A DNA stretch of 64,000 nucleotides from positions 1,560 through 65,559 of the forward strand of contig JABISL010000034.1 in assembly GCA_018700055.1 (NCBI GenBank). The letters are read 5' to 3'. Shown here in pieces: positions 446-46,719 of the stretch; within the stretch, counting starts at the first letter, position 1, and every line of letters starts with the position of its first letter. Made by a program: the position numbers and the translations under genes. The notes below the pieces were generated by a model. The model was not told where the DNA came from. It did not search any database and was given only the letters and a program-made list of their open reading frames with translations. Source of the DNA: a bacterium. Lineage in GTDB: Bacteria; Margulisbacteria; Marinamargulisbacteria; UBA817; JABISL01.

Positions 446-486
446 TAACGACCCTGTAGCGATAAAGTTCTTGTGGAAAGGGTGAT

Positions 487-984: not shown

Positions 985-1034
985 AATAAAGCTCCTTTTG
1001 GATTCTGCGTGGTTAATCTATTATACTAAACGTT

Positions 1035-1286
1035 ATGATTCGCATGCTAATAGTTTTGGTTACACTTGGGGTAAGTATAGTAGGGGTTACTGCGGCAGAC
1101 CTTCAGACTACTTCGAGTTCAGACTCAGGGACGATACAATTTTTTGATAAGGGTTATTTGAATGATCCCATCATGCAATTTGAATCGGATCCATTACGTA
1201 GTGCGTTGGATCAACATATTTTTGGAATTCGTGAAGGATCTATAGGTGGATATGATTCAGCTGGGGGGTCTTGCGGGTGCAATTAG
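1035..1286 (+). CDS. hypothetical small secreted protein
   Basis: 83-aa ORF with a hydrophobic N-terminus (signal-like). I recognise no motifs. Confidence 0.25.
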   Translation: MIRMLIVLVTLGVSIVGVTAADLQTTSSSDSGTIQFFDKGYLNDPIMQFESDPLRSALDQHIFGIREGSIGGYDSAGGSCGCN

Positions 1287-2428
1287 TCGGCGTCTTTACT
1301 ATTCTTATTATGGCGTTTGTTATGGCCAAGCAGATTTTTGCGGAGCAGTACATTGCCTTTAAGTCGCTTAATTTTAAGGACTCAAAGAAAATCGATATTT
1401 GGGAAGGCTTAGTTCTTTATAAAACAGACTTATCAACTCATACTCAAATGACGGTTCAATACGGTTTGGACAGTGTGACCTCAGCTAGTTTTGGGGTGGT
1501 TTCTGGTGTGTCAGGGGCAAGCGCGAGTGCTAGTGCGATTCGCATCTCTGATGATGAGGAAGATGATGATGAGGACTCCGAATATACTGCGAGTGAAAGA
1601 TCTACGAAAACAAGGCAGCAGGCAGGATTATCTATTACTCATGCTTTTGCTCCGGATGTAAAAGGGACCTCGTCTGTAAGGATGAGTTATAAAACAGATT
1701 ACCAGTCTTATATTGCGGGCCAAACAATCACATTTCCTATAGCTGGACCTAACACGATTTTAGGCGTGGGTGGGTATTATACGCAGAATAATAATAACCC
1801 TTTGGTTACCACTACAAATGTTCAGCTTGAGCCGCCTTCGGATACTGATAGTACCCGTGTGACAGTTATTGGGTCGTTAGAACATGTGCTTTCACGCAAA
1901 AGTAAACTCAAGTTTTTGGCAGAAGGATTTGAAGATAAAGGGTATTTATCAACGGGATATCAACGCGTGACGATCACCTCAGATGATTCAGAAGCCTTGG
2001 AAGTATTGCCTAGTACACGAACTGGTTTGGCGCTTAGTATGATCTATAGTCAGTGGCTATTTGACTCTGCAGCACTTCATTTAAGAGGAAGAGTCTATCA
2101 GGATAGTTATGATATTAATGCCTATAGTTTGGATGCTCAGATAATGAAATATTTAGCAGAGGATCTTGTGGGGGATGTTCGTTTACGATACTACACTCAG
2201 TCTTCAGCAAGCTTTTTTGGTGAGTCATTTGTTAATATGCCTGATGGATTTTTTACGAACCATCCTGCGTTATCTCAATTTAATGCGTATCAGGCTACGG
2301 CTGGCATTAAAAAAGAAGTGGAATGGTTTGGGGGAGATGGCGCGATCAGCGCTGTTGTTAGTTTTTATTATGCAGACTTAGATTATAATTTTGGAACCCT
2401 TATGTTGGGGTACGAAACCACTTTTTAG
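1271..2428 (+). CDS. putative outer-membrane beta-barrel protein with an acidic DE-rich stretch
   Basis: 385 aa. It has a signal-like N-terminus, alternating hydrophobic/polar beta-strand-like segments, and a C-terminal aromatic residue (...LGYETTF) typical of OMP beta-barrels. It also has a DDEEDDDEDSEY acidic run. The start is probably downstream of the track start. Confidence 0.4.
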   Translation: MRVQLVGVFTILIMAFVMAKQIFAEQYIAFKSLNFKDSKKIDIWEGLVLYKTDLSTHTQMTVQYGLDSVTSASFGVVSGVSGASASASAIRISDDEEDDDEDSEYTASERSTKTRQQAGLSITHAFAPDVKGTSSVRMSYKTDYQSYIAGQTITFPIAGPNTILGVGGYYTQNNNNPLVTTTNVQLEPPSDTDSTRVTVIGSLEHVLSRKSKLKFLAEGFEDKGYLSTGYQRVTITSDDSEALEVLPSTRTGLALSMIYSQWLFDSAALHLRGRVYQDSYDINAYSLDAQIMKYLAEDLVGDVRLRYYTQSSASFFGESFVNMPDGFFTNHPALSQFNAYQATAGIKKEVEWFGGDGAISAVVSFYYADLDYNFGTLMLGYETTF

Positions 2429-2438
2429 GAGACTATAA

Positions 2439-3122
2439 ATGATTGGATTTATAACGGATTTGTTAGCATCATCGAGTCATAATATGGTTCTTATGGTTGG
2501 TTTGGTGTTTTTGGGTGGGATATTAACCTCATTAACTCCTTGTATATTTCCTATGATTCCAATTACCTTTTCGGTTATTACGAGCATTCATCCGGACTCG
2601 GGACGTTGGGGAAAAGTAGGGATGGTGTGTGCCTATGGCATGGGCCTTTCATTAGCTTATGTTGTACTGGGTGCGGTCGCGGTTCTATCGGGTAGCATTT
2701 TTGGCAGTATTTTGCAGGCCACTTGGATTAAGATTGTTATCGCGAATGTCTTTTTTTATATCGCGTTTTCAGCTAAAGGGTGGATGCGTCTTCCACAGGT
2801 TCAGTTCAAGCATCAATCGGTTAACTCAGTATTGTCTGTTGTCGGAATAGGGTTCGTCACCGGGGCCACAATGTCGCCATGTACGCTTCCTGTATTAGCG
2901 ATTGTGTTGGCATACGCTTCTCAGCAGAGTTTGGTGATGGGTATGTTTTTGTTGTGGGTTTACGCCATGGGGTTCTTTATTATTCTGATGGCGATTGCCT
3001 TATTTGGGGCATCATTCAAGGATCGACTGCCACAATCGGGTCCTTGGTTGAAGCGTGTAGAAACAGTGCTCTTTATATTAGCGATGGCGATTGGGGAATG
3101 GTTCTTGATGCAAGCTGGCTAA
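2439..3122 (+). CDS. ccdA: CcdA/DsbD-family membrane thiol:disulfide electron transporter (cytochrome c-type biogenesis protein CcdA-like)
   Basis: 227 aa with six hydrophobic segments. It has two conserved membrane-embedded cysteines in LTPCIFPMIP and SPCTLPVL contexts, as in CcdA/DsbD beta domains. Confidence 0.65.
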   Translation: MIGFITDLLASSSHNMVLMVGLVFLGGILTSLTPCIFPMIPITFSVITSIHPDSGRWGKVGMVCAYGMGLSLAYVVLGAVAVLSGSIFGSILQATWIKIVIANVFFYIAFSAKGWMRLPQVQFKHQSVNSVLSVVGIGFVTGATMSPCTLPVLAIVLAYASQQSLVMGMFLLWVYAMGFFIILMAIALFGASFKDRLPQSGPWLKRVETVLFILAMAIGEWFLMQAG

Positions 3123-3190
3123 TAAATTCTGACAGGGGGTATTTGGGTTAGTGATTGCCGGCATTGCCTAGGGTTTGATATAGTATCGGG

Positions 3191-4147
3191 ATGTCAGAAC
3201 AAGTCTATAATGATGTGCAGAACGTAGTCATAGTCGGATCAGGTCCAGCGGGTCATACTGCTGGGATTTATGCTGGTCGTGCATTATTGAGCCCCGTGAT
3301 GTTTGAAGGTGAGATGGCCGGTGGTGTTGCCGCAGGTGGTCAGCTGACCACAACTACTGATGTTGAAAACTATCCCGGATTTCCTGAAGGGGTTATGGGC
3401 CCGGATCTCATGTGGAAGATGCGTGAGCAGTCCATTAAATGTGGCACAACAATTATTACGAAGACCGTCGATTCAGTTGATTTTTCTAAGCAGCCATTTG
3501 AGTTAACGACACGTAAAGGTGTGGTAAAAGCCAAAACAGTTATTATTGCTACCGGAGCGACAGCAAAGAGATTAGGTATTCCAGGCGAAGACACTTATTG
3601 GCAGAAAGGCATGTCAGCTTGTGCTGTTTGTGATGGGGCGTTGCCTATTTTTCGTGAGAAACCATTGGTTGTTATTGGAGGAGGAGACTCTGCTGTAGAA
3701 GAGGCAGGGTACCTAACCAAATATGCAAGCAAAGTGTATCTCTTGGTTCGAAAAAATGAACTTAGAGCATCAAAGGTAATGCGTGAGAGAGCGATTGCCA
3801 ATGAGAAAATAGAGATCCTCTGGAATACAGAAGCTGTAGAAGCAACTGGTGGTAACTTGTTAGAGCAAGTGCGAGTGATAAACAATCAGACCAAAGAAGA
3901 GACTGTATTGGATGCGAGTGGATTATTCTATGCTATCGGACATGTTCCTAATACATCGTTCTTAGATGGCCAAATAACCCTAGATGCCGAAGGGTATATC
4001 GTGGTGTCAGAGCCAGGAACTACGAAAACCAATATCCCCGGTGTTTTTGCTTGTGGTGATGTCCAAGACAAAACCTACAGACAAGCAATAACCGCGGCGG
4101 GCTCAGGGTGTAAGGCTGCTTTAGAAGCAGAACGATACCTCGGGTAA
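3191..4147 (+). CDS. trxB: thioredoxin-disulfide reductase
   Basis: 318 aa. It has an N-terminal GSGPAGHTAG FAD-binding motif, the CAVCDGA redox-active disulfide motif and a GGGDSA NADPH motif. Confidence 0.9.
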   Translation: MSEQVYNDVQNVVIVGSGPAGHTAGIYAGRALLSPVMFEGEMAGGVAAGGQLTTTTDVENYPGFPEGVMGPDLMWKMREQSIKCGTTIITKTVDSVDFSKQPFELTTRKGVVKAKTVIIATGATAKRLGIPGEDTYWQKGMSACAVCDGALPIFREKPLVVIGGGDSAVEEAGYLTKYASKVYLLVRKNELRASKVMRERAIANEKIEILWNTEAVEATGGNLLEQVRVINNQTKEETVLDASGLFYAIGHVPNTSFLDGQITLDAEGYIVVSEPGTTKTNIPGVFACGDVQDKTYRQAITAAGSGCKAALEAERYLG

Positions 4148-6412: not shown

Positions 6413-6547
6413 GGACTGGCCTGAATTTCATTTATTTTATTAAAATTTTATTTTATTTTATTGGATGGGTAAAAAATGGGTTCAGAGTTAAGTTAAATAG
6501 GGTGGGTTTATGTTACAATTGGGTGACGTTTACAGGAGGAATATGAG

Positions 6548-7942
6548 ATGACTATAGACACTACAAAGATACGAATAGAGAAAGATACGATGGGTGAAAT
6601 GCAGGTTCCTTCGGACATGTATTATGGGGCACAGTCTGCCCGCTCATTAATGAATTTTCCAATTGGATGGGAAACGTTTCCTAGAGAATTTATCAAAGCC
6701 TTTGGCATCCTTAAGAAGGCTGCGGCATTAACAAACTTAGCATCTGGCGTATTGTCGCAAGAAAAAACGGACCTAATCGCGAAAGCGGCTGACGAAGTTA
6801 TTGAGGGCAAACTGGATGATCATTTTCCCTTAAGCGTATGGCAAACTGGGTCTGGAACGCAGACGAATATGAATGCGAATGAAGTTATCGCGAATCGTGC
6901 GATTGATATTGCAGGTGGTGTTGTAGGTTCAAAAGAGCCGATTCACCCTAATGATGATGTGAATAAATCACAATCTTCTAATGATACGTTTCCTACCGCA
7001 ATGCATATTGCCGCGGGGATGGAAATTCACGAGTCATTGATTCCGGCGATTAAGCAATTGAGAGATACATTTGCTCAAAAGGTAGAAGATTTTAAAGATG
7101 TCGTCAAAATTGGCCGAACGCATTTGATGGATGCGACGCCAGTAACTGTTGGGCAAGAGTTTTCAGGGTACGTACAGCAATTGAACAACGCACTTGAGCG
7201 TATTGAATCCGCTCAAAAACACATTTATGAGTTAGCTCTGGGTGGGACGGCAGTAGGGACAGGACTTAATACCCCGGAAGGCTATTCAGAAAACGTAGCC
7301 AAAACAATCGCAGATCTAACAGGGCTTCCTTTTGTAACAGCACCGAATAAGTTTGAAGCGTTGTCGGCACATGATGCCATTGTTCAAATGAGTGGTGCAT
7401 TCAAAACTTTGGCGGGGGGATTGTTCAAGATTGCCAATGATGTGCGTTGGTCTGCGTCTGGCCCGAGATGTGGCATTGGTGAGCTGCTGATTCCTGAAAA
7501 TGAACCTGGGTCATCAATTATGCCAGGGAAGGTAAACCCTACTCAGTGTGAAGCCCTTACAATGATTGCAGTTCAAGTTATGGGAAATGATGCCGCGATT
7601 GGGTTCGCAGGTGCATCAGGGAATTTTCAGTTGAACGTCTATAATCCAGTAATGATCTATAACTTGCTTCAGTCGATTAAACTTTTGGCTGATGGTTGCA
7701 ACGCATTTAATGATAAATGTGCAGTTGGCATTGAGCCGAATGCAGAGAATGTAGATAAGAACCTCTTTGGGTCCTTAATGTTGGTTACTGCGCTTAATAC
7801 TCACATTGGGTATGATAACGCAGCTGCGATCGCTAAGAAGGCTCATAAAGATGGATCTACGTTGAAAGAAGCGGCGGTTGGACTAGGTCATCTGACGGCG
7901 GAGCAGTTTGACGAATGGGTCAAACCAAAAACAATGGTCTAA
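6548..7942 (+). CDS. fumC: class II fumarate hydratase
   Basis: 464 aa. It has the [16 protein letters not shown] fumarate lyase signature and a typical FumC N-terminus ([17 protein letters not shown]). Confidence 0.92.
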
Positions 7943-7959
7943 TCTTGTCATCTAATTTT

Positions 7960-7996
7960 CCGCAGAGCTATCTGAAATGGCCCTGCGGAAAAAAAG
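7960..7996. terminator. Candidate bidirectional intrinsic terminator between the convergent fumC and the 8057-9373 gene
   Basis: ttttCCGCAGagctatctgaaatggccCTGCGGaaaaaaag. It has a 6-bp GC stem flanked by a T-run on one side and an A-run on the other. Confidence 0.4.
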
Positions 7997-15827: not shown

Positions 15828-16772
15828 ATGAAGTGGGAAAAATGGACCGGGGTATTGATGGTTGTGTTTGCAGTAGTGTTTTCACCAGCACTATTTGCGG
15901 AAGGTCCTGTTGTTTATGTTCTAAAGCATAAGTCTCTTTCTGTTTATAACGAGACAGAGGCGGCTGTGGTGGCGGATTTGAAATTGGACTACACGGTTGT
16001 AACAGCGAATGTCACTCTTGATACGATTAACTCGGTGTCGAGAGCGATTCGGAAGAAAAAGGCTGTGGCAGTCGTTGCCATTGGGACTAAGGCAACAGCA
16101 ATGATTAAGAAGAAGGTTACGCGTATCCCAATTCTTTTTTGTATGGCGTTGCGACCTGTTAAGACCGGTTTGGTTCCTTCGCTTAAACGGCCTGGTCATA
16201 TGATTACCGGAATTTCATTGGATATTCCGGTTGAAGTCCAGTTTAAACGTATTCGGAAACTTTTTCCTTGGATCAACAGAATCGGTGTTTTATACACTCC
16301 AAATCAAGATGAAGCGTTGATAGCGGCTGCCAAAAAATCAGCTAAACGATATGGGTTTAAGTTGTATATTAAGCCAATCCATTCGCAGAGTCAGATTCAA
16401 CCGCAGCTTAAGGATCTTTTTCAGAAACAAATTGAGCTGCTATGGGCCATTCCTGATCAAAAAATATATTCCAAACAAAACCTAGAATATATTCTTTTGT
16501 CCCTCAACCGGTTCAAAATTCCTTTTATGGGATTGTCTCGCGCCTATTTAAGTATGGGTGCCTTTTTCTCATTTGATCCAGATCCGAGTGATATAGGGAA
16601 AAGAACAGCCGCTCTAGTGAAGCGAGTGGATCAAAAAGGGGTGTCGCCAGGCAAAATATCTATAAAGGGCCCTAAAAAAATTAACTATTCTATCAATCAA
16701 CGTGTGATGAAGCGGTTTGGGTTTCATCCGCCACAAGAGACATTGAGAAATGCTAAAGAGGTCTTCCAATAA
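15828..16772 (+). CDS. periplasmic substrate-binding protein of the ABC_sub_bind (PF04392-like) family
   Basis: 314 aa with a signal peptide. The fold pattern resembles the uncharacterised ABC-type periplasmic components often found upstream of cyclase or kinase sensors. Its stop overlaps the downstream cyclase start (ATGA). Confidence 0.45.
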   Translation: MKWEKWTGVLMVVFAVVFSPALFAEGPVVYVLKHKSLSVYNETEAAVVADLKLDYTVVTANVTLDTINSVSRAIRKKKAVAVVAIGTKATAMIKKKVTRIPILFCMALRPVKTGLVPSLKRPGHMITGISLDIPVEVQFKRIRKLFPWINRIGVLYTPNQDEALIAAAKKSAKRYGFKLYIKPIHSQSQIQPQLKDLFQKQIELLWAIPDQKIYSKQNLEYILLSLNRFKIPFMGLSRAYLSMGAFFSFDPDPSDIGKRTAALVKRVDQKGVSPGKISIKGPKKINYSINQRVMKRFGFHPPQETLRNAKEVFQ

Positions 16773-18280
16773 TGGGGAAGGTTCGGATAAGCCTACTCGT
16801 TAAGTTTGTTGTCGCCTTGTCTCTCCTGATTGTCATGACCTCCATGATTATCACTCAGTTTTTCTTGACCAAGCAAACTCAACTCTATAGTGAAACGCTA
16901 CAGATGCGGTCTGAAACAGTGACCAAATCATTGGTTCAACATGCTGAGTTAGGTGTGCTGATCGCAAATAAAGAGTTGTTGTTGTCGTTGCTTGGAAAAG
17001 TGATGAAAGATGAGAATGTTTTGTTTACTGCTATTTTGAATCCGAAAAAGCGAATTTTGGCGATGGATAAACAGAAAGCCTTGGACCTAAGACTGGTCAG
17101 TCGATTGATTAGCCGGCTGGATCTTAAACGACCAGAAAAAGGTGTGGTGTCTAAATTGGCGTCAATTAAGGAGCTCGACTACCCGGCGTTTTTTTTGATG
17201 TCGCCAGTGGTTAGTAAAGAAAAAGTAATATTGGATGAAGAGGAGCTATTGTTTTTTACTGACATGGCCGATTCAGTAGGTGGGCAAGTGATTGGTTATG
17301 GGTTAGTTGTGGTTTCTACTAAAGCGATAGCATTAGCCATAAAGCGAAACCGGACGATTAGTTTGTTGATTACCCTGGGCGTTATTGTATTGGGAATTGT
17401 AGTGGGGCTGTTGTTTACGAGCTTTATTATTAAGCCTGTAAAAGCCTTGGTTAGTGGCACTAAATTGGTGTCGGGAGGGGACTATTCTATTCAAGTGGAT
17501 GTGAGCTCAAAGGATGAGATTGGGGTGCTAACGTATTCGTTTAATACCATGGTTGATAAAATCCGAGTGCAGCAAGATCAGCTTATGGACTATAATCGAA
17601 CTTTGGAAGAAAAGGTAAAACAACGCACGTCAGAGTTGGCTGTCGAAAAAGAAAAATCTGATGAGTTGCTACTCAATATTTTACCGTTATCAATTGCTGA
17701 TCGTCTCAAAGCTAAAGAAGAAACCATTGCAGATAGTTTTGATGAGGTGACCGTTTTGTTTTCGGATATTGTTGGGTTTACCCCACTTTCTTCCAAAATA
17801 TCAGCTACAGAATTAGTTGTTTTGCTTAATGACATTATCTCCGAATTTGACCGTATGACGGAGCGGTTTGGGTTGGAAAAAATTAAGACCGTTGGGGATG
17901 CCTATATGGCAGTGAGTGGTGCGCCAGACTTTCGCTCAGATCATGCCGAGTGTGTAGCAAATATGGCGCTGGAAATGAGAGAGTTTCTGAGTGACTATCA
18001 TTCCAAAACAGGCGATGCGATTAGTATTCGAATAGGTATAAATACCGGACCTGTGGTTGCAGGTGTTATTGGCCTCAAGAAGTTCGTTTATGATCTTTGG
18101 GGCGACGCGGTTAATGTGGCTAGTCGTATGGAATCCAGCGGCGTTCCAGGCGAAGTTCAGATCTCAGAAAGTACTTATGCCCATATTAAGGACAAGTTTA
18201 TAACCGAAGATAGGGGCGAGATAGAAGTAAAAGGCAAAGGGAAAATGCAGGCATACCTCTTAAAAGGAACGCTCGGATAA
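16772..18280 (+). CDS. membrane-anchored class III adenylate/guanylate cyclase with a HAMP domain
   Basis: 502 aa with an N-terminal TM, a periplasmic region and a second TM. It has HAMP (ALVSGTKLVSGGDYSIQVDVSSKDEIGVLTYSFNTMVDKI) and CYCc-domain motifs (VTVLFSDIVGFTPLSS, KTVGDAYMAVSG, WGDAVNVASRMES). Confidence 0.85.
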   Translation: MGKVRISLLVKFVVALSLLIVMTSMIITQFFLTKQTQLYSETLQMRSETVTKSLVQHAELGVLIANKELLLSLLGKVMKDENVLFTAILNPKKRILAMDKQKALDLRLVSRLISRLDLKRPEKGVVSKLASIKELDYPAFFLMSPVVSKEKVILDEEELLFFTDMADSVGGQVIGYGLVVVSTKAIALAIKRNRTISLLITLGVIVLGIVVGLLFTSFIIKPVKALVSGTKLVSGGDYSIQVDVSSKDEIGVLTYSFNTMVDKIRVQQDQLMDYNRTLEEKVKQRTSELAVEKEKSDELLLNILPLSIADRLKAKEETIADSFDEVTVLFSDIVGFTPLSSKISATELVVLLNDIISEFDRMTERFGLEKIKTVGDAYMAVSGAPDFRSDHAECVANMALEMREFLSDYHSKTGDAISIRIGINTGPVVAGVIGLKKFVYDLWGDAVNVASRMESSGVPGEVQISESTYAHIKDKFITEDRGEIEVKGKGKMQAYLLKGTLG

Positions 18281-18466: not shown

Positions 18467-19240
18467 TTAATGGGAGTGCGCTTTATGACCATGGTGATGC
18501 GTTTTCTGGGTGTTTATTTCTTCATGTGCATGGGAGTGGTTGTCGGAACGAAGCCTAACATTATCGGGGGAGGGTGTATTTAAAAATCCGTGTATTTGTA
18601 TGAGAAAAAGTAGGGCGCCAGCAACGATAAGTCCTCCATTGGCAAAGGTGCTAAACTTTGTGAATGAGGGTGTTTTTCGCCAGTTGGAAATAAGAATAAT
18701 CATTGCTAATAAGGCGACGATTTGCCCGATTTCTACGCCTACATTAAATGATAATATTCTCATAACAAGGCCATGATCTCCGAGAGGGAGTTGTTGTAGT
18801 CTAGTTGAAAGCCCAAAGCCATGAATCAATCCAAATAAGAAGACGATAGAAATAAGATTGGGGCTTTTTATTTTGAGATACTTTTTGAACCCATCAATAT
18901 TCTCAAACCCTTTGTAACAAACACTCAAGGCGATTATGGCATCCACAAGGTAATAGTTGGCGGAGACATTAAAAATAGTGGCGAAAATGAGTGTAATACT
19001 ATGTCCTAAGGTAAAGGCTGTAATAAACTTGAAGATGTCTTTGAACCGGCGTAAAAAGAAAATAATCCCGAGTAAAAATAAAAGGTGATCATAGCCAGTA
19101 ACCATGTGAATAGCACCTAAACGGATGTACTCTAAATAGCCGCCGTTTAGCATGGTGACTTGGTTTGCTTTAGAAATTCCGTGAGCAAAGGCTTGTGTAG
19201 TTGGAGAGAGACAGATTATTAGTAAGAATTTTTTTAGCAT
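18467..19240 (-). CDS. HupE/UreJ-family membrane protein (Ni/Co-type metal transporter accessory) with a His-rich C-terminal tail
   Basis: 257 aa with a signal peptide and multiple TM segments. The C-terminus reads HSHAHEEINTQKTHHHGHKAHSH. Confidence 0.6.
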   Translation of the reverse strand: MLKKFLLIICLSPTTQAFAHGISKANQVTMLNGGYLEYIRLGAIHMVTGYDHLLFLLGIIFFLRRFKDIFKFITAFTLGHSITLIFATIFNVSANYYLVDAIIALSVCYKGFENIDGFKKYLKIKSPNLISIVFLFGLIHGFGLSTRLQQLPLGDHGLVMRILSFNVGVEIGQIVALLAMIILISNWRKTPSFTKFSTFANGGLIVAGALLFLIQIHGFLNTPSPDNVRLRSDNHSHAHEEINTQKTHHHGHKAHSH

Positions 19241-21645: not shown

Positions 21646-22629
21646 TTATATCCCGTATTGCCAACCAAGTGTGATGATGGATGTGGTTTCGAGTTGAGAC
21701 CCGTTAAGCGTTTGTGCTATTGGAGTAATCAGTTCTAATGCGAAGCGGTGTCCGGAATAAGGCCCTTCGGGTTGAATGAAGTTGATTCCAAGGCCTATCT
21801 CTGTTCGTGTTCCACCGGAGTTAATTGGGTTGCCGGCAGGCGACTTGGTGCTCGATATTGTAGCGTCTGATCCTTTGATTGATCCCCAAACGGTATGATC
21901 CACTCTGGCTGAGATACTTAAACTGTTTCCTAGAGGTTTTGCGATCCAAGTAGTGGCCTTGTATTGATCTCCTAAGCGATAGTCACGAGGATTGTCATTG
22001 GTACGAATGGTTGCGGAGGTTTGGGCTCCCAAGGACAAGTCAGCGTGTGTTTGAACGTAAGTGAGTCCTGGTAGAAGGGATGTGGACCCGGATCCAATTT
22101 GCATCGGATACGTTTGGACTGACCCTCCAGTGCTTGAGTTAATACGTCCTATTGGTAGGCTTGCCCCTGCTGTGAGATGGAGCTTATGGGTCGGTGTTTT
22201 CCAAATGGTATAGAGCGCAGAAAGTGACACGTCGCCGAACCCTTGAGACATTTCAGACATGGTCGCAGATGACATTTGGTTAATCATTGTCATGTTTTTT
22301 CGTGACCACGGGAGCATGATCATCCATGTGAAGTCGTCTGTAGGGGCGATCATAGCGCCAAGCATAAGCATATCCATACTCATTGACTGAGGCGCCATCA
22401 TATAGCCAGTAGCAGCGCTATTTAGTCCCGCCATGTTCATTCTCATATATCGTGTTGATAGCATCCATTCGCCTTTATTATGGGTGTGCTCACCCATTAC
22501 TGAGATAGGGGCATGGGCATCTGGGCGACTCACAGCCATAGCGGGAGAAAATGCTGAGAGTAATAGTATGCCTGTCATTAGACAAAATAATTTGTTTTTC
22601 ATAGTAATAGTCCTTTGTATATGATCCAA
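21646..22629 (-). CDS. outer-membrane beta-barrel protein with a strongly Met-rich region
   Basis: 327 aa with a signal peptide (LFCLMTGILLLSAFSPAMA). It has a dense Met cluster (MRMNMAGL...MMAPQSMSMDMLMLGAMIAP...WMIMLPWSRKNMTMINQMSSATMSEMSQ) and beta-strand-rich remainder. Confidence 0.4.
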   Translation of the reverse strand: MDHIQRTITMKNKLFCLMTGILLLSAFSPAMAVSRPDAHAPISVMGEHTHNKGEWMLSTRYMRMNMAGLNSAATGYMMAPQSMSMDMLMLGAMIAPTDDFTWMIMLPWSRKNMTMINQMSSATMSEMSQGFGDVSLSALYTIWKTPTHKLHLTAGASLPIGRINSSTGGSVQTYPMQIGSGSTSLLPGLTYVQTHADLSLGAQTSATIRTNDNPRDYRLGDQYKATTWIAKPLGNSLSISARVDHTVWGSIKGSDATISSTKSPAGNPINSGGTRTEIGLGINFIQPEGPYSGHRFALELITPIAQTLNGSQLETTSIITLGWQYGI

Positions 22630-22681
22630 TCTCCGATGTTAAATTTGGGGTGGATATGGATGGAGTTCAGCGTAAGGCTGG

Positions 22682-23131
22682 TTATATTACAAAGGAAGTA
22701 TTGGGTGGCTGTGTGGGTGGAGGCCGCTTAATGGAGCGGGAATTCTCATTTAAATAGGCGAGTTGGGTGGTTGTTATTTTTGGGATAGTTATTGCGAGTA
22801 GTGATGGATTAGCGGCTATTTTCGGGAAGACGGTTTGGTCCAAGTCTTGTGTTTTGGGTTCAGAGGTTGGATTGGGTGATGGTGTTATGGATTTTATTGG
22901 ACTACTAGGGTTACAGACGATGAAGTTGTCGTGTGTGGTTTGACCTTGAGTGGGCAGCAAGGGAATGCTGATACTCATAATCAAGACATAAGTTAGTAGT
23001 GTGAGTGCAGAAATATAGGGTTGGAGTCTACGGAGCATTTGCATAACCTTATTACTATAGTAGCGATATATTACCGTAAGAATTAAGATGTTTACAAGGT
23101 GGGGATGATCACTTATGATACTAAGTCTCAA
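22682..23131 (-). CDS. hypothetical membrane-anchored Pro-rich protein (the start is probably internal)
   Basis: 149-aa ORF with one TM (ISALTLLTYVLIMSISIPLL) followed by a P/S/T-rich low-complexity tail. The track start overlaps the repeat region at 23116-23148. Confidence 0.25.
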   Translation of the reverse strand: MRLSIISDHPHLVNILILTVIYRYYSNKVMQMLRRLQPYISALTLLTYVLIMSISIPLLPTQGQTTHDNFIVCNPSSPIKSITPSPNPTSEPKTQDLDQTVFPKIAANPSLLAITIPKITTTQLAYLNENSRSIKRPPPTQPPNTSFVI

Positions 23132-23148
23132 TTGATACTAAGTCTCAA
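23116..23148 (+). promoter_or_regulatory. Two perfect 16-bp direct repeats (TGATACTAAGTCTCAA) with 17-bp periodicity. They lie 50 nt upstream of the porin-like OMP gene in a divergent intergenic region.
   Basis: Read directly: tgatactaagtctcaa t tgatactaagtctcaa at 23116-23131 and 23133-23148. Confidence 0.5.
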
Positions 23149-23198
23149 AATGTAATATTGACGAGTACAAAATATATAGAAAATACAGGAGATTTATA

Positions 23199-24338
23199 GT
23201 GAAAAAGACAATAGCAAGTATATTAATGATTGGGGTTTTGGTTAGCCCGATGGTGGCAGCGGACTATAAGAGTTTGGATAGTGAAAAAGGGTCTGGCGGA
23301 TACGCTATTACCGCTTTTGATCGAAATGCATCACGGAAAGTGGCATTGGGTGGTTATTTTGATACGGAATTTATTTCGAAAGATGGATCATCTACATTTC
23401 GTGCCCATCGCTTGGTACTAGAAACATCTGCACAATTGCACAAAAATTTGTTGTTTAGTTCAGAAATAGAATTTGAATATGGCGCTAAAATTGCAGGCGA
23501 TTCTACAGATACTGATGGTGAACTTAAGATTGAACAAGTTTGGTTTGATTACCGATTGAATGATGCTCTAACTACACGTACAGGAATTGTTTTGGTTCCT
23601 TTTGGTCGGTTGAATCAGCTTCATGATTCTGATGTTAGAGATACAACAGAGCGTGGCGTATTTGCTAAGTACATAGTTCCTACTACTTGGAGTGACACAG
23701 GCGCAGGGTTGTTGGGTCAGTTAGAATTTGGTGATGTGGAAGTAAGTTATGAAGGGTATTTGATCAACGGATTAAATGCTGCACCTACAGCTGCTAAAGG
23801 GATTCGTAGCTCACGCCCAGGATTCAAAACGGACAACAATGAGAACAAGGCGATTGTTGGTCGATTGGGACTTAGCCCGTATCAAGGATTAGTTGTTGGT
23901 GTGAGTGGTTACACAGGTACTTATGACACCGATGGCGATAAGTCGATAGGGATGTTTGGATTAGATGCTTCTTGGAAAAACGGACCCGCTGAAGTCGTTG
24001 CTGAATGGGCTCAAATTGATGCGAACCAAGAAACAAGCGCAACGCCTCAGACGCTTTCTGGATATTATGTTGAAGGTCGTTACCATTTATCGCCTGCATG
24101 GTTAAAGTCTGGATTGCCTGATTTTAAACATCCAGTAATCACACTGTTTGGTCGTTTGGGATCCGTAGATTTGGATACGTCAGTTGAAGATTCTATGGAT
24201 ATTACTCAATACACGTTTGGATTAAACTTCAGACCTATTGAGAATGTTGCGTATAAGTTTGAATATGAAATTAATGAAGAAAAGACTGATGCTACAGACA
24301 ATAACGCGTTTATTGCTTCGATTGCAGTTGGCTTTTAA
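23199..24338 (+). CDS. porin-like outer-membrane beta-barrel protein
   Basis: 379 aa with a signal peptide (ILMIGVLVSPMVAA). It has an alternating beta-strand pattern and a C-terminal ...IASIAVGF (terminal Phe). Confidence 0.4.
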   Translation: MKKTIASILMIGVLVSPMVAADYKSLDSEKGSGGYAITAFDRNASRKVALGGYFDTEFISKDGSSTFRAHRLVLETSAQLHKNLLFSSEIEFEYGAKIAGDSTDTDGELKIEQVWFDYRLNDALTTRTGIVLVPFGRLNQLHDSDVRDTTERGVFAKYIVPTTWSDTGAGLLGQLEFGDVEVSYEGYLINGLNAAPTAAKGIRSSRPGFKTDNNENKAIVGRLGLSPYQGLVVGVSGYTGTYDTDGDKSIGMFGLDASWKNGPAEVVAEWAQIDANQETSATPQTLSGYYVEGRYHLSPAWLKSGLPDFKHPVITLFGRLGSVDLDTSVEDSMDITQYTFGLNFRPIENVAYKFEYEINEEKTDATDNNAFIASIAVGF

Positions 24339-24366
24339 TTCATTTTCGAATTTGATAGCACGGAGA

Positions 24367-24394
24367 ACGGCTCTTTTGGGAGCCGTTCTTTTTG
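24367..24394 (+). terminator. Candidate rho-independent terminator after the porin gene. Alternatively it lies inside a Tat-like leader of the next ORF if that ORF starts at TTG 24352.
   Basis: ACGGCTC-ttttgg-GAGCCGT, a 7-bp GC-rich stem, followed by tctttttgtg. It lies 28 nt after the stop at 24338. Confidence 0.5.
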
Positions 24395-24486
24395 TGTGTC
24401 TGGGAGTAGAGACAGCGTGTTGGGGGATAGAAACGCCAGATTATTCGGAGAAAATATATGCCACATCGGATCAAGCATTAGTTCAA

Positions 24487-24927
24487 ATGTTTCCCAAGGC
24501 GTTACGGTTTGAAGAAAAGACAGTGACCTTAAGTGCCAAAGAAAAAAAAGTGGTAGAAACCGAATTGGGATGGCGAGTGACCCAAACTAATTACTCAGTT
24601 GTTAATGCAATGGCGGAAGATAAGATCCTAGGATACGGCATAATCTTGGATGAGTTGGGCAAGCATTATCCGATTACTTTTATGGTGGGAATAAGTCCTG
24701 ATTTATCAGTAAGTAATGCGGTAGTGATGGTGTATCGAGAACGGATTGGATGGAAAATTAAGAAACGTCGATTTCTGAAACAGTTTTTTGGGAAGACGTT
24801 GAAGGATGCCATTGCAGTAGATCTCGATATCAATGGAATTAGTGGCGCGACAATATCGTCTTGGGCGGTTGCCTCTGGGATTAGACGGGCATTGGTCGTG
24901 ACCCAGGTGATACAATCTAGACTATGA
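24487..24927 (+). CDS. FMN-binding domain protein carrying an ApbE flavinylation motif. The start is uncertain; in-frame alternatives are TTG 24352 and GTG 24394.
   Basis: The C-terminal DLDINGISGATISSWAV matches the D-x-x-[ST]-G-A-[TS] covalent FMN attachment motif of NqrC/RnfG-type FMN_bind domains. The track ORF 24238.. overlaps the porin gene by 100 nt and is probably over-extended. The TTG-started form would begin IARRTALLGAVLFV, which is Tat-like. Confidence 0.5.
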   Translation: MFPKALRFEEKTVTLSAKEKKVVETELGWRVTQTNYSVVNAMAEDKILGYGIILDELGKHYPITFMVGISPDLSVSNAVVMVYRERIGWKIKKRRFLKQFFGKTLKDAIAVDLDINGISGATISSWAVASGIRRALVVTQVIQSRL

Positions 24928-25568
24928 GGAAATTTCATCGTGTAGCCAGTATGGTGTCATTGTTGGGCTTGTTATTGTTGGCTTTAACAGGGTTATATTT
25001 GAATCATTCTGACTCGTTTCAACGATTGGATATAAGAGATCCGTTTGCGCGAGGGATTAGTGTTATGGCACAAGACCCTAATGAGGCCAATAGAGTCTGG
25101 ATTGGGACTAAGCATGGGCTGTTTCTTAGTCAAGATGGGGGGGTAAATGCGCAAGAAGTCCGGCTACCCTTTCCCGCTAAAAAAGTAAGATATTTACAAG
25201 TCGCATCTGACGGTAGTGTTTATGCGGGCTTGGCTGATGGGGTTCTTTTTCGACTGGATGTGAATGGGCCTTTCTGGGAACGCCTTATCTTGCCCTCTAA
25301 TACCTATGAGCTTAAGGGAATGATTGTGTTTGGCGAGAGTATTATGATAGTGAATCGTCAGGGCCTTTTTCAGCGGCGCATGGGGCAGTCTGAGTGGGCA
25401 TTGTTGCAGAAGGACGTCTACCCTAGGCCTGTCCGTGATTGGGTAAAAGATATTCATACAGGACACATATTTCGTGGGCCATTGTTGGTTTGGTTGTATG
25501 ACATATCTGCTGTGATTCTTTTGGGGTTAATTGTAACTGGAATCGCGATGTTCTTTCGCAAACGTTAA
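24924..25568 (+). CDS. PepSY-associated-TM-like membrane protein (two TM helices flanking a periplasmic repeat domain)
   Basis: 214 aa. It has an N-terminal TM (MVSLLGLLLLALTGLYLNH) and a C-terminal TM preceded by HTGHIFRGPLLVW, which is a PepSY_TM-like His/Gly signature. The start overlaps the FMN-bind gene stop (ATGA). Confidence 0.4.
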   Translation: MRKFHRVASMVSLLGLLLLALTGLYLNHSDSFQRLDIRDPFARGISVMAQDPNEANRVWIGTKHGLFLSQDGGVNAQEVRLPFPAKKVRYLQVASDGSVYAGLADGVLFRLDVNGPFWERLILPSNTYELKGMIVFGESIMIVNRQGLFQRRMGQSEWALLQKDVYPRPVRDWVKDIHTGHIFRGPLLVWLYDISAVILLGLIVTGIAMFFRKR

Positions 25569-26723: not shown

Positions 26724-27356
26724 TTAGTTGGATATGTTGTTGAATCCAAAAGTAGGTGGCTGCATTTCACATTGCCCCCCACTGCCATCTATTTTTCCTG
26801 TACCATCAGTTACGAACTGACCTATAGTAGCTCCGGATACAACTAGATTAGAACTTAATTGGAATCCCTTGGTGGCATCAGATGAGGTAGTTGGTGCTTT
26901 CCATGGGGTTACACCATCGCCTCCACCTGTAGATGTAGATGCGGTGGATAGGTGAAGCCAAACCTTATTTTCAGTTCCGTCACAGGTTGTAGTGGAGCCA
27001 TCGATCGGGTTGATAACATCCTCTGATCCATTGTTGCCACATACATCAGACGTTTCATCTTCATCGGCAGTACAGGTTCCAGTAGTAGAAGTAGATGCGT
27101 ATTTAATGTTGTCACTCATTTCTATGATAACACAGTTATATGTTCCATCAGCGAGTTCCCCTGACCCAAAATCAGGGCTGTCGAGTACATTTTTGTATTC
27201 TGGATCGGTATTGTTTACAACAACGACCGGGTCAGTACAAAATGCGCTTTCAGAAACCGCAAATCGATAAACCTTAACTTTTAAAAATGCTGGATCTGCG
27301 CCGTTGACGAGCGTAGTAAATAGGATTGCTGTAATTAGTAATCCCCATATTTTCAT
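26724..27356 (-). CDS. secreted Cys-containing, T/S/G/D-rich hypothetical protein
   Basis: It has a signal peptide (MKIWGLLITAILFTTLVNGA) and six or more Cys in the mature part. I recognise no motifs. The start was chosen at the internal Met of track ORF 26724..27374. Confidence 0.3.
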   Translation of the reverse strand: MKIWGLLITAILFTTLVNGADPAFLKVKVYRFAVSESAFCTDPVVVVNNTDPEYKNVLDSPDFGSGELADGTYNCVIIEMSDNIKYASTSTTGTCTADEDETSDVCGNNGSEDVINPIDGSTTTCDGTENKVWLHLSTASTSTGGGDGVTPWKAPTTSSDATKGFQLSSNLVVSGATIGQFVTDGTGKIDGSGGQCEMQPPTFGFNNISN

Positions 27357-27403
27357 TTGTTGAACCCCTTTCAATTAAGACAATTGTTATGACTTGGCCT
27401 GAT

Positions 27404-43758: not shown

Positions 43759-46719
43759 ATGATTATTCTTTATTCTATTATTATTTGTCTAAATGTAGGG
43801 TTGGGGTTTTTAGCGTTATTTAAAAATAATAATCAAAAAGGACTCGTTCAAACGAGAGCGGCTTTTTTTAATCTTTCTTGTTTTTGTGCGCTTTGGGTTC
43901 TGTCAGTCTGTATGGTGAAATATGGGGCTAGTCCAATTTTTTGGATCAAAATGGCCTTTTTTTCGGGGATAGGGTTTGTCTTTAGTTTTTTGTTGATGAT
44001 ACTCAGATACCCTACTCATATAAACCTTCCTAAATGGGTTTGGGGGTTAGTGATTGGGGGGGCAGTCTTGTTATGCGGGCTGAGTTTTACGCCTCTAATT
44101 GTTCAAGGGTTTGATGCAAGTGCACACCAGGTAAACTATGGCCCTTTATATAGGGTGGTGGTCTATTATATTTCGGCGTTAATTTTGACTTCTGGATTTC
44201 TGGCTATTCATCAGTATAGAAAAGGAAGTGGTTTGGATCGATTGCGTGTCTTTTATTTGATATCAGGGATGTTGTTTTCTTTTGTTGGTATCTATATTAC
44301 CAATATTCTTCTTCCAAATTTGTTGCATACAAACAAAAGTAGTGCCTATGGACCTTTGTTTTTGACTGTATTTTTGGCGACGACAGTTTACTCTATTCTG
44401 AAGCATCGTCTTATGGAAATTGATCTTGTGATCAAAAAAGGCGTGTTTTATTTTCTGCTTACTACATGTTTGTCCCTCCCGGTTTTATTTTTGTTTATGG
44501 TAACAAGTATTCTTACAGCAGATGAATCTGGACTCACGCTCTTTTTTTGTTTTGGGTTTGTAGCCATAAGTATTGTTCTTTTGTATCCCCATCTTATTGA
44601 AATTATTGACCATATTACAGAACGGTTGTTTTTTCGGAAGCCAACGGATTACCAAGCATTAACGACGGATATTAGTGGTCGTCTTTCTAGAGTTATCACC
44701 GAGACGCAATTGGCAGATGTTCTGGTTCGAGTAATGACGGATCGATTAAAATTGTATGGTGCAAGTTTATATGTTTTAAGGGGAACGGGAGCGTTTTCTC
44801 GGGTGGAAGGGGTAGGGTCTATGAAAAATATTCCTGAGGTATTACCTGAGGACCATCCCGTGATTCAATGGTTTAAATATCGCCCTTGTAGTGTTTACCC
44901 TAATGAACCTGTTTTTGATGTTAGTGATATTCCACAAAAAGAGTTGTTTACACAAGAAATGTCTTTTTTTATGGTAAACGGTGTTGGTGTAGGGATTCCT
45001 TTTATGTATGAGGGCCGTTTGATGGGGTTTTTGTTATTAACTGAAAAATTGTCTCAGAAAGCGTTTACTCAGAACGATACATTGTTTTTTGAGATGGTTT
45101 CGAATCAAGCTGTTACTGTGCTACAAAATATGGTGAGTATCGCTGAAGTAAAGCAACAAATATCGACATTAAATGACTTGAATGCGTTTGCGGTAAGGGT
45201 TTCTGAAACGTTGGAGTCGGATGCTATTTTTGAGGTTTTTTCTACGGATGCTAAAAAGTTTTTGGGATTTGATTGGGTGATATGTAGTGACTCAACCAAG
45301 CTTTTAGGCGATGAAAGTGGCGCGTCTTGGTTTGATAGGGACAGTGATTCAAAAAAAATAAAGCCTTTTCCATGTAGTGCCTATAAAGAGTATGTTCTTC
45401 AGTTAGATTCCGAGTATGGTCCGTTTGTACTGTCTTCGGATATGCATCCTGAGCTGACAAAATATAAGGACTATTTGACGGAGCAATTGGGGAACCATAG
45501 AGTGATCGGGATTCCTTTTTTACATAGTGGAAAGCTGATGGGGATAGCATTGGGAGGATTATCCAATGTTCGATCAGAATTGTCTCCTCGTAAGATGATG
45601 ATGTTGGGGACCTTGGCTCAACAAACGGCTGTGGCATTATATAACGCCCATCTCTATGAAGAAATGCGTCAAATGCAGTCTTATCATGAGGCTATACTAG
45701 GTAACATGACGAGTGGTGTGGTGGTTTTAGATGACCAGAACTGTGTGGCTTTGGTAAATCAAGCGTTTGCGACAAGTATTTCAATGCAGAGAGAGGCGAT
45801 GGTACATGTTTCGATTGATGATCTTATTAAAAAGAACAGAGCTTTGATAGCGTTGACGGAGAACCGAGGGCCTCGGCAGCCGGTAGAAATTATCTTGAAA
45901 AATGAAACAGGGATGCATGACTACTCCCTAAGTGTGGAAGAAATCCCGTTTGGGGAGGTTGTATATCGAGTAGGTGTTCTTAGTGATTTGACGTCGATTA
46001 AAAAGCTTCAGAAACAAATGATTCATGCTGATCGATTGTCATCGTTAGGGACCATGGCTGCGGGGATTGCCCATGAAATTCGAAATCCGCTTTCAGCTGT
46101 TTTGTTATGTACTGAAATGCTTCAAACCAAATGGGAGGATAACGGGTTTACGAAGACGTATGTGGATACAGTGGATACACAAGTCACTCGTATTAATACG
46201 CTCTGTCAGTCACTGCTACGCTTGGGAAAACCTCAAAAGCCGAGGTTGGACGAAGTATCACTTCGCCAAGTGTTTCAAGAAATGGAGGATTTGTTAGGGG
46301 TTAAGTTTCGGGAGAAAAGTGTCTCTTTTGAGAGTCGTGTAACGCAAGAGTGTTCAGTATATGCAGACCGAAATCAATTGGTTCAAGTATTAATAAATAT
46401 TATTTTGAATGCATTGGATGCAGTTCCTGATACGGGTGGCGTTATTTGGTTTTCTTATGAGTCGAGTGGGGAGATTGCAGTTATCAGGATTCATGATAAT
46501 GGAAAAGGGATTCCTTCTGATGATATTTCTAAGGTATTTGATCCGTTCTTTACTAACAAAGAGCAAGGGACGGGGCTTGGATTGTCGATTGTTCATCAAA
46601 TTATTCAAGATCATAGAGGTACAATATCGGTTCAATCTAGTCCTGATCAGGGGACAGAGTTTGTTATATCGATTCCCTTATTTGCCATTAGACGAGTGCC
46701 TAAGGAATTAATGGTATGA
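43759..46719 (+). CDS. sensor histidine kinase with an N-terminal multi-TM (HK 7TM-like) domain plus GAF, PAS, HisKA and HATPase_c domains; paralog 1
   Basis: 986 aa with about 8-9 N-terminal TM segments. It has the H-box SLGTMAAGIAHEIRNPL and ATP-lid motifs DNGKGIP and GTGLGLSIVHQII. Confidence 0.8.
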   Translation: MIILYSIIICLNVGLGFLALFKNNNQKGLVQTRAAFFNLSCFCALWVLSVCMVKYGASPIFWIKMAFFSGIGFVFSFLLMILRYPTHINLPKWVWGLVIGGAVLLCGLSFTPLIVQGFDASAHQVNYGPLYRVVVYYISALILTSGFLAIHQYRKGSGLDRLRVFYLISGMLFSFVGIYITNILLPNLLHTNKSSAYGPLFLTVFLATTVYSILKHRLMEIDLVIKKGVFYFLLTTCLSLPVLFLFMVTSILTADESGLTLFFCFGFVAISIVLLYPHLIEIIDHITERLFFRKPTDYQALTTDISGRLSRVITETQLADVLVRVMTDRLKLYGASLYVLRGTGAFSRVEGVGSMKNIPEVLPEDHPVIQWFKYRPCSVYPNEPVFDVSDIPQKELFTQEMSFFMVNGVGVGIPFMYEGRLMGFLLLTEKLSQKAFTQNDTLFFEMVSNQAVTVLQNMVSIAEVKQQISTLNDLNAFAVRVSETLESDAIFEVFSTDAKKFLGFDWVICSDSTKLLGDESGASWFDRDSDSKKIKPFPCSAYKEYVLQLDSEYGPFVLSSDMHPELTKYKDYLTEQLGNHRVIGIPFLHSGKLMGIALGGLSNVRSELSPRKMMMLGTLAQQTAVALYNAHLYEEMRQMQSYHEAILGNMTSGVVVLDDQNCVALVNQAFATSISMQREAMVHVSIDDLIKKNRALIALTENRGPRQPVEIILKNETGMHDYSLSVEEIPFGEVVYRVGVLSDLTSIKKLQKQMIHADRLSSLGTMAAGIAHEIRNPLSAVLLCTEMLQTKWEDNGFTKTYVDTVDTQVTRINTLCQSLLRLGKPQKPRLDEVSLRQVFQEMEDLLGVKFREKSVSFESRVTQECSVYADRNQLVQVLINIILNALDAVPDTGGVIWFSYESSGEIAVIRIHDNGKGIPSDDISKVFDPFFTNKEQGTGLGLSIVHQIIQDHRGTISVQSSPDQGTEFVISIPLFAIRRVPKELMV

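Follow-up and report, generated by a model that had tools for sequence, protein, structure and literature searches.

The subject of this analysis is a 64,000-nt stretch of the Marinamargulisbacteria contig JABISL010000034.1 (the window) and, within it, a small extracytoplasmic module formed by a porin, an FMN_bind protein and a PepSY_TM protein; the module is considered, with moderate confidence, to be a metal-repressed, TonB-independent system for reductive iron uptake, which would reduce Fe(III) in the periplasm. Genes were called from open reading frames (ORFs) and Pfam gathering scores, and numbers of the form L0xx designate related loci. Two divergent transcription units flank a 160-bp control region; the plus strand carries the porin, FMN_bind and PepSY_TM genes in that order, and the minus strand a small Pro/Thr-rich ORF followed by a methionine-rich β-barrel outer membrane protein (OMP). 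A first-pass annotation, made from the DNA letters, had listed the porin, the FMN_bind and PepSY_TM proteins, the 16-mer repeats of the control region, the Met-rich OMP and an ApbE gene, and all of these are present at the positions collected in Table 1. The remaining genes of the window have housekeeping, signalling and envelope functions.

The predicted flavoprotein and its two-helix membrane partner

The FMN_bind protein is predicted to be a secreted, RnfG-like substrate of ApbE that carries flavin mononucleotide (FMN). Its start is ambiguous, being either a TTG at 24352 or, per the public annotation P0001, an ATG at 24289. Export was examined with both alternatives, and in either case the N-terminus contains ...ARRTALLGAVLFVCLGVETA, a hydrophobic export segment that aligns with the hydrophobic N-termini of homologues; such a segment, judged without a dedicated signal-peptide predictor, is seen in 24/24 aligned homologues and in 71 of the 78 that are full-length. 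Export by the twin-arginine (Tat) route was considered and rejected; the window protein does have the sequence ARRTALL, however the arginine pair is not conserved among homologues.

The C-terminal region reads ...DLDINGISGATISSWAV..., and Thr167, the last residue of its SGAT motif, is predicted to carry covalent FMN. The flavinylation motif has been defined as D-x-x-[S/T]-G-A-[S/T] with the modified Thr or Ser in last position, and exchange of its Asp reportedly had only minor effects (review PMC12052999). The first-pass annotation had read this complete motif in the window protein and had made its interpretation depend on the SGAT residues being kept in orthologues; the core is indeed kept, as [ST]G[AS]T occurs in 88/88 homologues and Thr167 is invariant among the 24 aligned, however the Asp is not where the motif places it. 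The window protein reads N-G-I-S-G-A-T, with the conserved Asp at -5 relative to the first S/T (83/88 homologues) rather than at -3; an Asp at -3 is also missing from the solved RnfG chains.

In alignments with solved RnfG the SGAT site falls on the segment ITG(A/S)TITS, and the FMN_bind family profile matches the RnfG chains 9ERI_G (E = 1e-10) and 7ZC6_G (E = 2e-8), with the match to 9ERI_G spanning residues 11-181; homology to RnfG/NqrC is full-length, with the same position of the modified Thr and the same periplasm-facing location. It could accordingly be argued that the ORF is a stray or fragmentary NqrC or RnfG of a standard Nqr/Rnf complex, given that its best PDB and NCBIfam matches are RnfG and that some database sources give its homologues the RnfG label. 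This reading is contradicted on several sides and retains almost no probability: with the NCBIfam RnfG models the protein reaches 29-35 bits where 102-230 are required, the 64-kb window was found to contain neither nqr nor rnf genes, the fixed neighbours of the gene are a porin and a PepSY_TM protein, and it does not belong to a six-subunit complex. Furthermore, L005 has a complete NqrABCDEF operon with its own genuine NqrC immediately upstream of the module, and in L012 nqr genes also lie immediately upstream. As the first-pass annotation had supposed, the FMN_bind protein is neither NqrC nor RnfG.

The stop codon of the FMN_bind gene and the start codon of the PepSY_TM gene overlap as ATGA (24924-24927), which bears out the proposed coupling of the flavoprotein to a two-helix PepSY_TM-like protein; an AlphaFold2 model (mean predicted local distance difference test score of 79) has two transmembrane (TM) helices. 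The model begins with TM1 (residues 2-27), continues with three four-stranded blades (twelve strands, 45-163) and a short helix (170-179), and ends with TM2 (186-211). Foldseek matches the periplasmic part to segments of propellers such as Ycf48, RACK1 and OXG-RCBH, its blades also being similar to BNR-type proteins, and no match to the PepSY domain PF03413 was obtained with Pfam. The PF03929 match covers the second half of the profile only (positions 178-295 of 295).

A single-sequence search with the PepSY_TM protein returned the protein itself alone. PDB searches gave designed propellers only for the whole protein and no match for a single sequence limited to the TM segments. The family was built from neighbouring genes in the related loci and then extended by profile; the TM-only profile of this family matches both halves of FoxB (PDB 7ABW) with E = 7.5e-8. 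The first-pass annotation had allowed that the PepSY-like protein might belong to an unrelated family; this FoxB match, together with the 50 bits scored against PF03929, shows otherwise. FoxB of Pseudomonas aeruginosa is a haem-b ferric-siderophore reductase, and in the paper describing its structure H198 is an axial haem ligand on the cytoplasmic side, while haem propionates are contacted by R10 and by R342, the latter lying in the PIHGGR segment and acting at the periplasmic haem. His5 and His178 are the sole invariant histidines among 22 aligned family members; both align with FoxB histidines and are predicted to be axial haem ligands (Table 1), and R6 aligns with FoxB R10.

FoxB and its kin (FpvG, FsrB, FhuB, HiuB, VciB) have homologous TM segments, and their periplasmic reduction of Fe(III) feeds an inner-membrane Fe(II) importer. 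In FoxB one chain supplies all four TM helices as well as two PepSY domains, which form the substrate cavity in proteins of this type, and its partner is a TonB-dependent receptor, with no flavoprotein involved; the window protein differs in having two TM helices, rather than the four per chain that the FoxB type needs, as well as three blades and, as partners, a flavinylated protein and a porin. On the alignment and the model the PepSY_TM protein is a half-size FoxB in which propeller blades replace the PepSY domain. It is probably homodimeric, with two b haems predicted per dimer, and the three blades of each chain may combine into one propeller of six. Every PepSY_TM protein modelled in a 2026 survey has at least four TM segments, and the two-helix form is therefore an architecture that had gone unremarked.

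In a search of a representative library, large BNR-repeat proteins dominate the results, and about two dozen of the top 150 are full-length two-helix relatives. Longer relatives of ~450-540 residues (P0158, P0165, P0200, P0228, P0238, P0245, P0265) have the same two TM helices, with the histidines in HKW and EIHTGR contexts; the helices enclose a full multi-blade propeller of the BNR type, and a coiled-coil tail extends into the cytoplasm. The idea that they are fused dimers was rejected, as a complete propeller sits between the same two helices; they are a larger, undescribed branch of two-helix PepSY_TM-like proteins.

Conservation of the cassette and its control region

The porin is the first gene product of the operon and carries a signal peptide (MKKTIASILMIGVLVSPMVAA). 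Related loci were gathered from 88 FMN_bind homologues, through contig look-ups and a scan of one genome per GTDB species with an eight-sequence alignment; this gave about 50 loci, whose neighbouring genes were surveyed by tblastn. No partner accompanies the FMN_bind gene more constantly than the porin, a homologue of which lies directly upstream in nearly all of the ~50 loci and in several phyla. The arrangement porin-FMN_bind-PepSY_TM, whose conservation in relatives the first-pass annotation had named as a point to check, proves to be strongly conserved: it is kept in ~40 loci, chiefly of Candidatus Sericytochromatia but also of Margulisiibacteriota, Omnitrophota and Alpha-/Gammaproteobacteria. 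About 30 distinct loci from Sericytochromatia, Tanganyikabacteria, Blackallbacteria and Margulisiibacteria have the three genes in this order, usually followed by ApbE; the four-gene order porin-FMN_bind-PepSY_TM-ApbE is found in most loci of the first three groups, and one Margulisiibacteriota metagenome-assembled genome (L032) has porin-FMN_bind-PepSY_TM. The tblastn census gave porin-FMN_bind-ApbE in Omnitrophota and Krumholzibacteria, and porin-FMN_bind in Robiginitomaculum and some Gammaproteobacteria; a Pfam check of the Robiginitomaculum locus L041 showed that Porin_O_P, FMN_bind, a 229-residue two-helix PepSY_TM protein and ApbE are all there. In L003, L005 and L012, the nearest relatives of the window, feoA-feoB lies directly downstream of the PepSY_TM gene, and fur is found within a few kb in L005, L012 and L034.

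The control region contains a tandem 16-mer, TGATACTAAGTCTCAA, at 23116-23131 and 23133-23148. Each 16-mer holds a 7-1-7 palindrome, and the repeats are therefore best read as a duplicated operator for a dimeric regulator, one that resembles a Fur box. The earlier suggestion of a response-regulator site built on direct repeats is not borne out and was rejected, as each unit is itself palindromic and lone palindromes lie upstream in relatives. Copy 1 overlaps the -10 hexamer of a site that is promoter-like by consensus match only (10/12); a repressor would be expected to bind in just such a position, over the -10 box.

The classical 7-1-7 Fur box has the consensus TGATAATnATTATCA, from which the window palindromes (TGATACTAAGTCTCA) depart by 3 mismatches over 14 specified positions, and the porin-upstream sites of the family by two to three substitutions. 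A degenerate form of the palindrome, TGAnAnTnAnTnTCA, occurs 15 times in the 19.7 kb upstream of porins and twice in the 567 kb that make up the remainder of the loci, an enrichment of more than 200-fold; with one mismatch allowed there are 27 sites upstream and 30 elsewhere (26-fold), in 18/41 loci. Within the 64-kb window it matches the two tandem sites and nowhere else. A third, weaker site (TGATACTCATAATCA) lies inside the 5' end of the small divergent gene; it differs from the degenerate palindrome at one position and from the classical box at two. Near-identical sites stand upstream of the porin in L032 (TGATACTCAGTCTCA), in L003 (TGAGACTTAGTCTCA) and also in L012; the porin-upstream boxes of Sericytochromatia are TGAGAATGATTCTCA, often paired ~38 bp apart, and in Robiginitomaculum the porin is preceded by two TGAGAATAATTCTTA-type boxes. 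The feoAB and fur linkage makes Fur the best guess for the regulator, with another member of the Fur family being possible.

A hairpin past the porin stop codon (Table 1) may be a partial terminator or an mRNA stabilizer that sets the ratio of porin to reductase expression, with the porin in excess. Hairpins occupy the equivalent position in L003 (~6450-6472) and L013 (~7885-7965), however not in every locus, and a T-run after the hairpin is seen in the window copy only.

Divergent barrel, second flavinylation cluster and other genes of the window

The Met-rich OMP is a β-barrel with an MxMxMxM ladder whose gene diverges from the shared operator region. Residues 28-127 include 20 Met, compared with a background of 2.7 % (binomial P ~3e-12), which substantiates the extraordinary methionine cluster described in the first-pass annotation. 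Within a subfamily of Phenol_MetA_deg-type barrels the ladder (AP.SMSM.M.M.G.M..TD....M.M) is conserved, and homologues from Ruegeria and Methylosinus, which came from a plasmid collection, have nine Met positions in invariant form. On the Methylosinus plasmid (L056 4576-6792) the barrel homologue makes up the C-terminal portion of an OMP of 738 residues, whose gene immediately precedes that of a 1049-residue FeoB, with a PepSY_TM gene and a FecIR-associated TonB receptor close by; on the Ruegeria plasmids (L055 5815-6924) the homologue adjoins ccm genes. A metagenome scan for the Met-rich OMP returned the same organism only, and a PDB search no match; in the tblastn census it stands beside the module in contigs of the same organism only and in no other lineage. 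The protein may be an outer-membrane channel for a reduced metal ion. The small protein encoded by the first gene of this divergent unit has a hydrophobic N-terminal segment and found no family match in library searches.

A second flavinylation cluster occupies positions 1-4147, with ApbE and a Redoxin/TlpA-like gene divergent from DUF3570, DsbD and TrxB genes (Table 1); it is separate from the porin module and matches the "DsbD system" of Méheust et al. 2021. The ApbE gene is cut by the window edge. A stop codon immediately precedes its open frame, which overlaps the TlpA gene at the latter's end; the fragment therefore has no signal peptide or lipobox. It stands so although the presumed DUF3570 substrate is extracytoplasmic, and the enzyme is either cytoplasmic, like a minority of ApbEs, or exported otherwise. 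The module-linked ApbEs of relatives carry hydrophobic N-termini. The first-pass annotation was right about the missing signal peptide and the TlpA neighbour; its placing of this ApbE with the porin module gives way to a DUF3570-DsbD cluster of its own, and as modifier of the FMN_bind protein the enzyme is only a candidate.

Two genes from the module, a 216-residue Ser/Thr/Gly-rich protein (26724-27374, minus strand) with a hydrophobic N-terminus contains VVSGATIG; as a flavinylation site this was set aside as probably a chance match, with no upstream Asp and no family match. A rough estimate puts the number of [ST]GA[ST] matches to be expected in a window at about one or two, and the other matches lie in cytoplasmic or TM contexts. 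A HupE/UreJ membrane protein (18467-19240, minus strand; PF13795, 184 bits) with a His-rich C-tail (HSHAHEE...HHHGHKAHSH) is encoded 2.4 kb from the Met-rich OMP; this family is usually annotated as a Ni/Co transporter, and no operator-like site was found near the gene. Signalling genes, in which the window is rich (16772-18280, 43759-49655, 49681-51876), encode a HAMP adenylate/guanylate cyclase, a SulP/STAS transporter fused to a cyclic-nucleotide-binding domain, and two tandem histidine kinases of ~980 residues, both GAF-PAS and the first with an N-terminal 7TM region. GC skew is positive in every 2-kb bin of 1-64000 (0.09-0.29, mean ~0.19) without a change of sign, and genes lie on both strands; the whole window appears to belong to one replichore with an unusually strong bias of G over C.

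Table 1. Positions of the module, its control elements and neighbouring features in the window (bits are Pfam scores).
Feature	Position	Strand	Details
Porin	23199-24338	+	PF07396 Porin_O_P, 46 bits (cutoff 20.9)
FMN_bind protein	24352-24927 or 24289-24927 (frame open 24238-24927)	+	PF04205, 34.7 bits (cutoff 22); secreted, RnfG-like, predicted ApbE substrate
S164-G-A-T167 codons	24841-24852	+	T167, predicted covalent FMN site
PepSY_TM protein	24924-25568	+	PF03929, 50 bits (cutoff 28.8); PF16357, 32 bits
His5 codon	24936-24938	+	predicted axial ligand of cytoplasmic-side haem; aligns with FoxB H9 and H198
His178 codon	25455-25457	+	predicted axial ligand of periplasmic-side haem; aligns with FoxB H339, PIHGGR segment
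Promoter	23091-23119	+	sigma-70-like, TTTACA, 17 nt, TATGAT
Operator copy 1	23116-23130	.	7-1-7 palindrome TGATACT-A-AGTCTCA
Operator copy 2	23133-23147	.	identical to copy 1, 17 bp downstream; covers expected transcription start
Third, weaker operator-like site	22969-22983	.	inside 5' end of small divergent gene
Hairpin	24362-24391	+	13-bp GC-rich stem, then T-run; past porin stop, overlaps FMN_bind signal-peptide codons
Small Pro/Thr-rich protein	22682-23038	-	ORF; 118-aa gene in public contigs
Met-rich OMP	21646-22629	-	PF13557, 36.6 bits; Phenol_MetA_deg family; also delimited as 21646-22602
ApbE fragment	2-514	-	PF02424, 77.8 bits; N-terminal 171 residues
Redoxin/TlpA-like gene	487-984	-	CSVC
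DUF3570	1271-2428	+	VSGVSGASA motif
DsbD_TM	2439-3122	+	
Thioredoxin-reductase-like Pyr_redox_2	3191-4147	+	CAVC

A proposed reductive route for iron and its alternatives

PepSY-like flavinylated systems have been defined by a PF03929/PF16357 protein within five genes of FMN_bind, ApbE, DUF2271 or DUF3570, at least one of which has a signal peptide; such clusters have been proposed to serve iron reduction and assimilation, and were reported to be Fur-repressed in two species (PMC8238504). The module is a system of this kind because its PF03929/PF16357 protein adjoins an FMN_bind gene with an export segment. It shares with the clusters of Méheust et al. a membrane PF03929/PF16357 protein beside an exported ApbE substrate and a proposed role in transmembrane electron transfer; those clusters typically feature DUF2271 (2833/3220 clusters), DUF4198, TonB receptors and VIT1, whereas the module has an RnfG-like FMN_bind substrate, a porin O/P channel, a two-TM propeller PepSY_TM protein and, in relatives, FeoAB. 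The module would therefore work like a FoxB-type reductase joined to an RnfG-type flavin carrier, without being a strict member of either group. The same logic underlies the accepted outline of cyanobacterial reductive iron uptake, in which porins or TonB-dependent transporters are followed by periplasmic reduction and FeoB import; in Synechocystis the reductase has been only tentatively assigned to ARTO and the genes are dispersed, whereas the module encodes a putative dedicated haem-flavin reductase in one operon with a porin, with feoAB in relatives, and is concentrated in the non-photosynthetic sister lineages of Cyanobacteria.

The pathway is hypothesized to run as follows. When iron is plentiful, a dimer of the Fur family would occupy both palindromes observed over the -10 box and transcription start, the regulator and its metal being putative. 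Once repression is lifted, the porin would act as a dedicated O/P-type channel that admits Fe(III) species to the periplasm, a role assigned to it because of its obligatory synteny with the flavoprotein. A quinol or a cytoplasmic donor would supply electrons to a PepSY_TM dimer forming a FoxB-like four-helix bundle with two b haems, the His5 pair on the cytoplasmic side and the His178 pair on the periplasmic side; the homology to FoxB and the invariant histidines point to this arrangement, from which haem binding and dimerization are predicted. The periplasmic haem would then reduce the FMN on Thr167, attached by an extracytoplasmic ApbE, and the flavoprotein would in turn convert Fe(III) to Fe(II); such flavinylation is predicted from the motif, the export signal and the ApbE genes of relatives. 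Lastly, FeoAB would take up the Fe(II), the direction of electron flow and the iron substrate both being presumed. In three close relatives feoAB follows the module directly; as it is missing from the window, its place here is presumably elsewhere in the genome.

Several observations weigh against this pathway. No feoAB, fur or any other iron gene was found in the 64-kb window, and the feoAB linkage is limited to three lineages. No adjacent ApbE was found beside the porin operon in the window, and the sole ApbE of the window lacks a signal peptide and lies 21 kb off in another cluster. Channels of the Porin O/P family are known for anions, not iron. The operator departs from the classical Fur box, and the protein that binds it could be Zur, Mur, PerR or some unrelated regulator acting as a dimer; a soft metal, for instance Cu(I), is suggested by the divergent Met-rich OMP. 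Haem binding, dimerization, flavinylation and reductase activity are themselves predictions from sequence, and the PepSY_TM subfamily of CrpH, which supports haem-copper oxidase function, has been proposed to reduce copper.

This last point, together with the divergence of the Met-rich OMP from the same operator region and the conservation of its MxMxMxM ladder in homologues, is what could be said for a periplasmic reductase of Cu(II) to Cu(I) for copper acquisition, for example to supply haem-copper oxidases, with the Met-rich OMP as the Cu(I) channel. CrpH of Bordetella pertussis, which represents the copper-linked subfamily (PMC13038864), however has four or more TM helices, is accompanied by a TonB-dependent copper importer and lacks a flavoprotein partner, whereas the module comes without copper genes: CopA, CusF, Sco and CcoG-type genes were not seen in the window or the related loci. 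In no other lineage does the Met-rich OMP accompany the module. Its nine invariant Met, found in the Ruegeria and Methylosinus homologues as well, are characteristic of the family, and what follows directly downstream of the Methylosinus homologue is feoB rather than copper genes; the conserved transporter partner of the module is FeoAB, and the nearby regulator is Fur. A copper reductase is hence considered improbable. The first-pass annotation had proposed a small periplasmic flavin-based redox system for metal reduction or copper handling; metal reduction is retained, while the copper role, including the one attached to the Met cluster, yields to iron, which is the more likely metal given feoAB, fur and the Fur-box-like operator.

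Electron supply to a non-metal acceptor, for instance in the repair or reduction of a periplasmic substrate that enters by way of the porin, is also conceivable, as is a PepSY_TM protein that is a non-haem anchor or sensor; flavinylated systems have many extracytosolic functions, an adjacent metal transporter is missing at most loci, and the propeller blades could bind a non-metal ligand. This general periplasmic function is judged unlikely, since the only two invariant histidines map onto the haem ligands of FoxB, the extra genes, where attached, are feoAB and fur, and Fur-box-like operators are present. A different use of the porin would be a conduit in which the FMN_bind protein docks in or under the barrel and passes electrons to extracellular Fe(III) or another acceptor, as a flavin analogue of MtrAB for respiration or mineral dissolution. 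The porin is the most invariant neighbour of FMN_bind across phyla, ahead of PepSY_TM or ApbE, and in Listeria flavinylated FMN_bind proteins are terminal extracellular electron carriers. Such a conduit is very unlikely: the protein has a single flavin domain and no multihaem or multi-flavin wire, Porin O/P-type pores are narrow, a domain of ~150 residues is unlikely to thread the barrel, and the feoAB link and Fur-like box suit assimilation rather than respiration. A more speculative form, to which little probability is given, would make the porin and flavoprotein a physical unit, with FMN_bind docked at the periplasmic mouth of the porin or partly inside the porin and fed by a minimal homodimeric di-haem PepSY_TM protein with a six-bladed propeller, and with Fe(III) reduced at or beyond the outer membrane; if true, the arrangement would be a flavin-based equivalent of the MtrAB porin-cytochrome conduits, independent of TonB and poor in cytochromes, mainly in Sericytochromatia and Margulisiibacteria.

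Reductive iron uptake as a function is foreseeable from published work, and the module is an undescribed variant of a predicted class of systems. Full-text literature searches returned no description of the porin-FMN_bind-PepSY_TM cassette; neither a porin nor FeoB is mentioned in the main text of PMC8238504 or of its 2024 sequel, and PF07396, PF02421, Sericytochromatia and Margulis are absent from the supplementary files searched of the 2021 flavinylation paper. The new features are the conserved pairing of porin and flavoprotein, the half-size, propeller-bearing protein predicted to bind haem, the link to FeoAB and a distribution concentrated in Sericytochromatia and Margulisiibacteria. The module would extend the PepSY_TM reductases to a half-size, probably homodimeric, propeller-bearing form, and would add a porin- and FeoAB-linked architecture to the ApbE-dependent systems. 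If the iron pathway is true, an outer-membrane gate, a haem-flavin reductase, a flavin transferase and sometimes FeoAB are all brought together in one operon, which would make the cassette, found mainly in non-photosynthetic relatives of Cyanobacteria and some marine Proteobacteria, a compact and testable candidate for the missing reductase of iron uptake.

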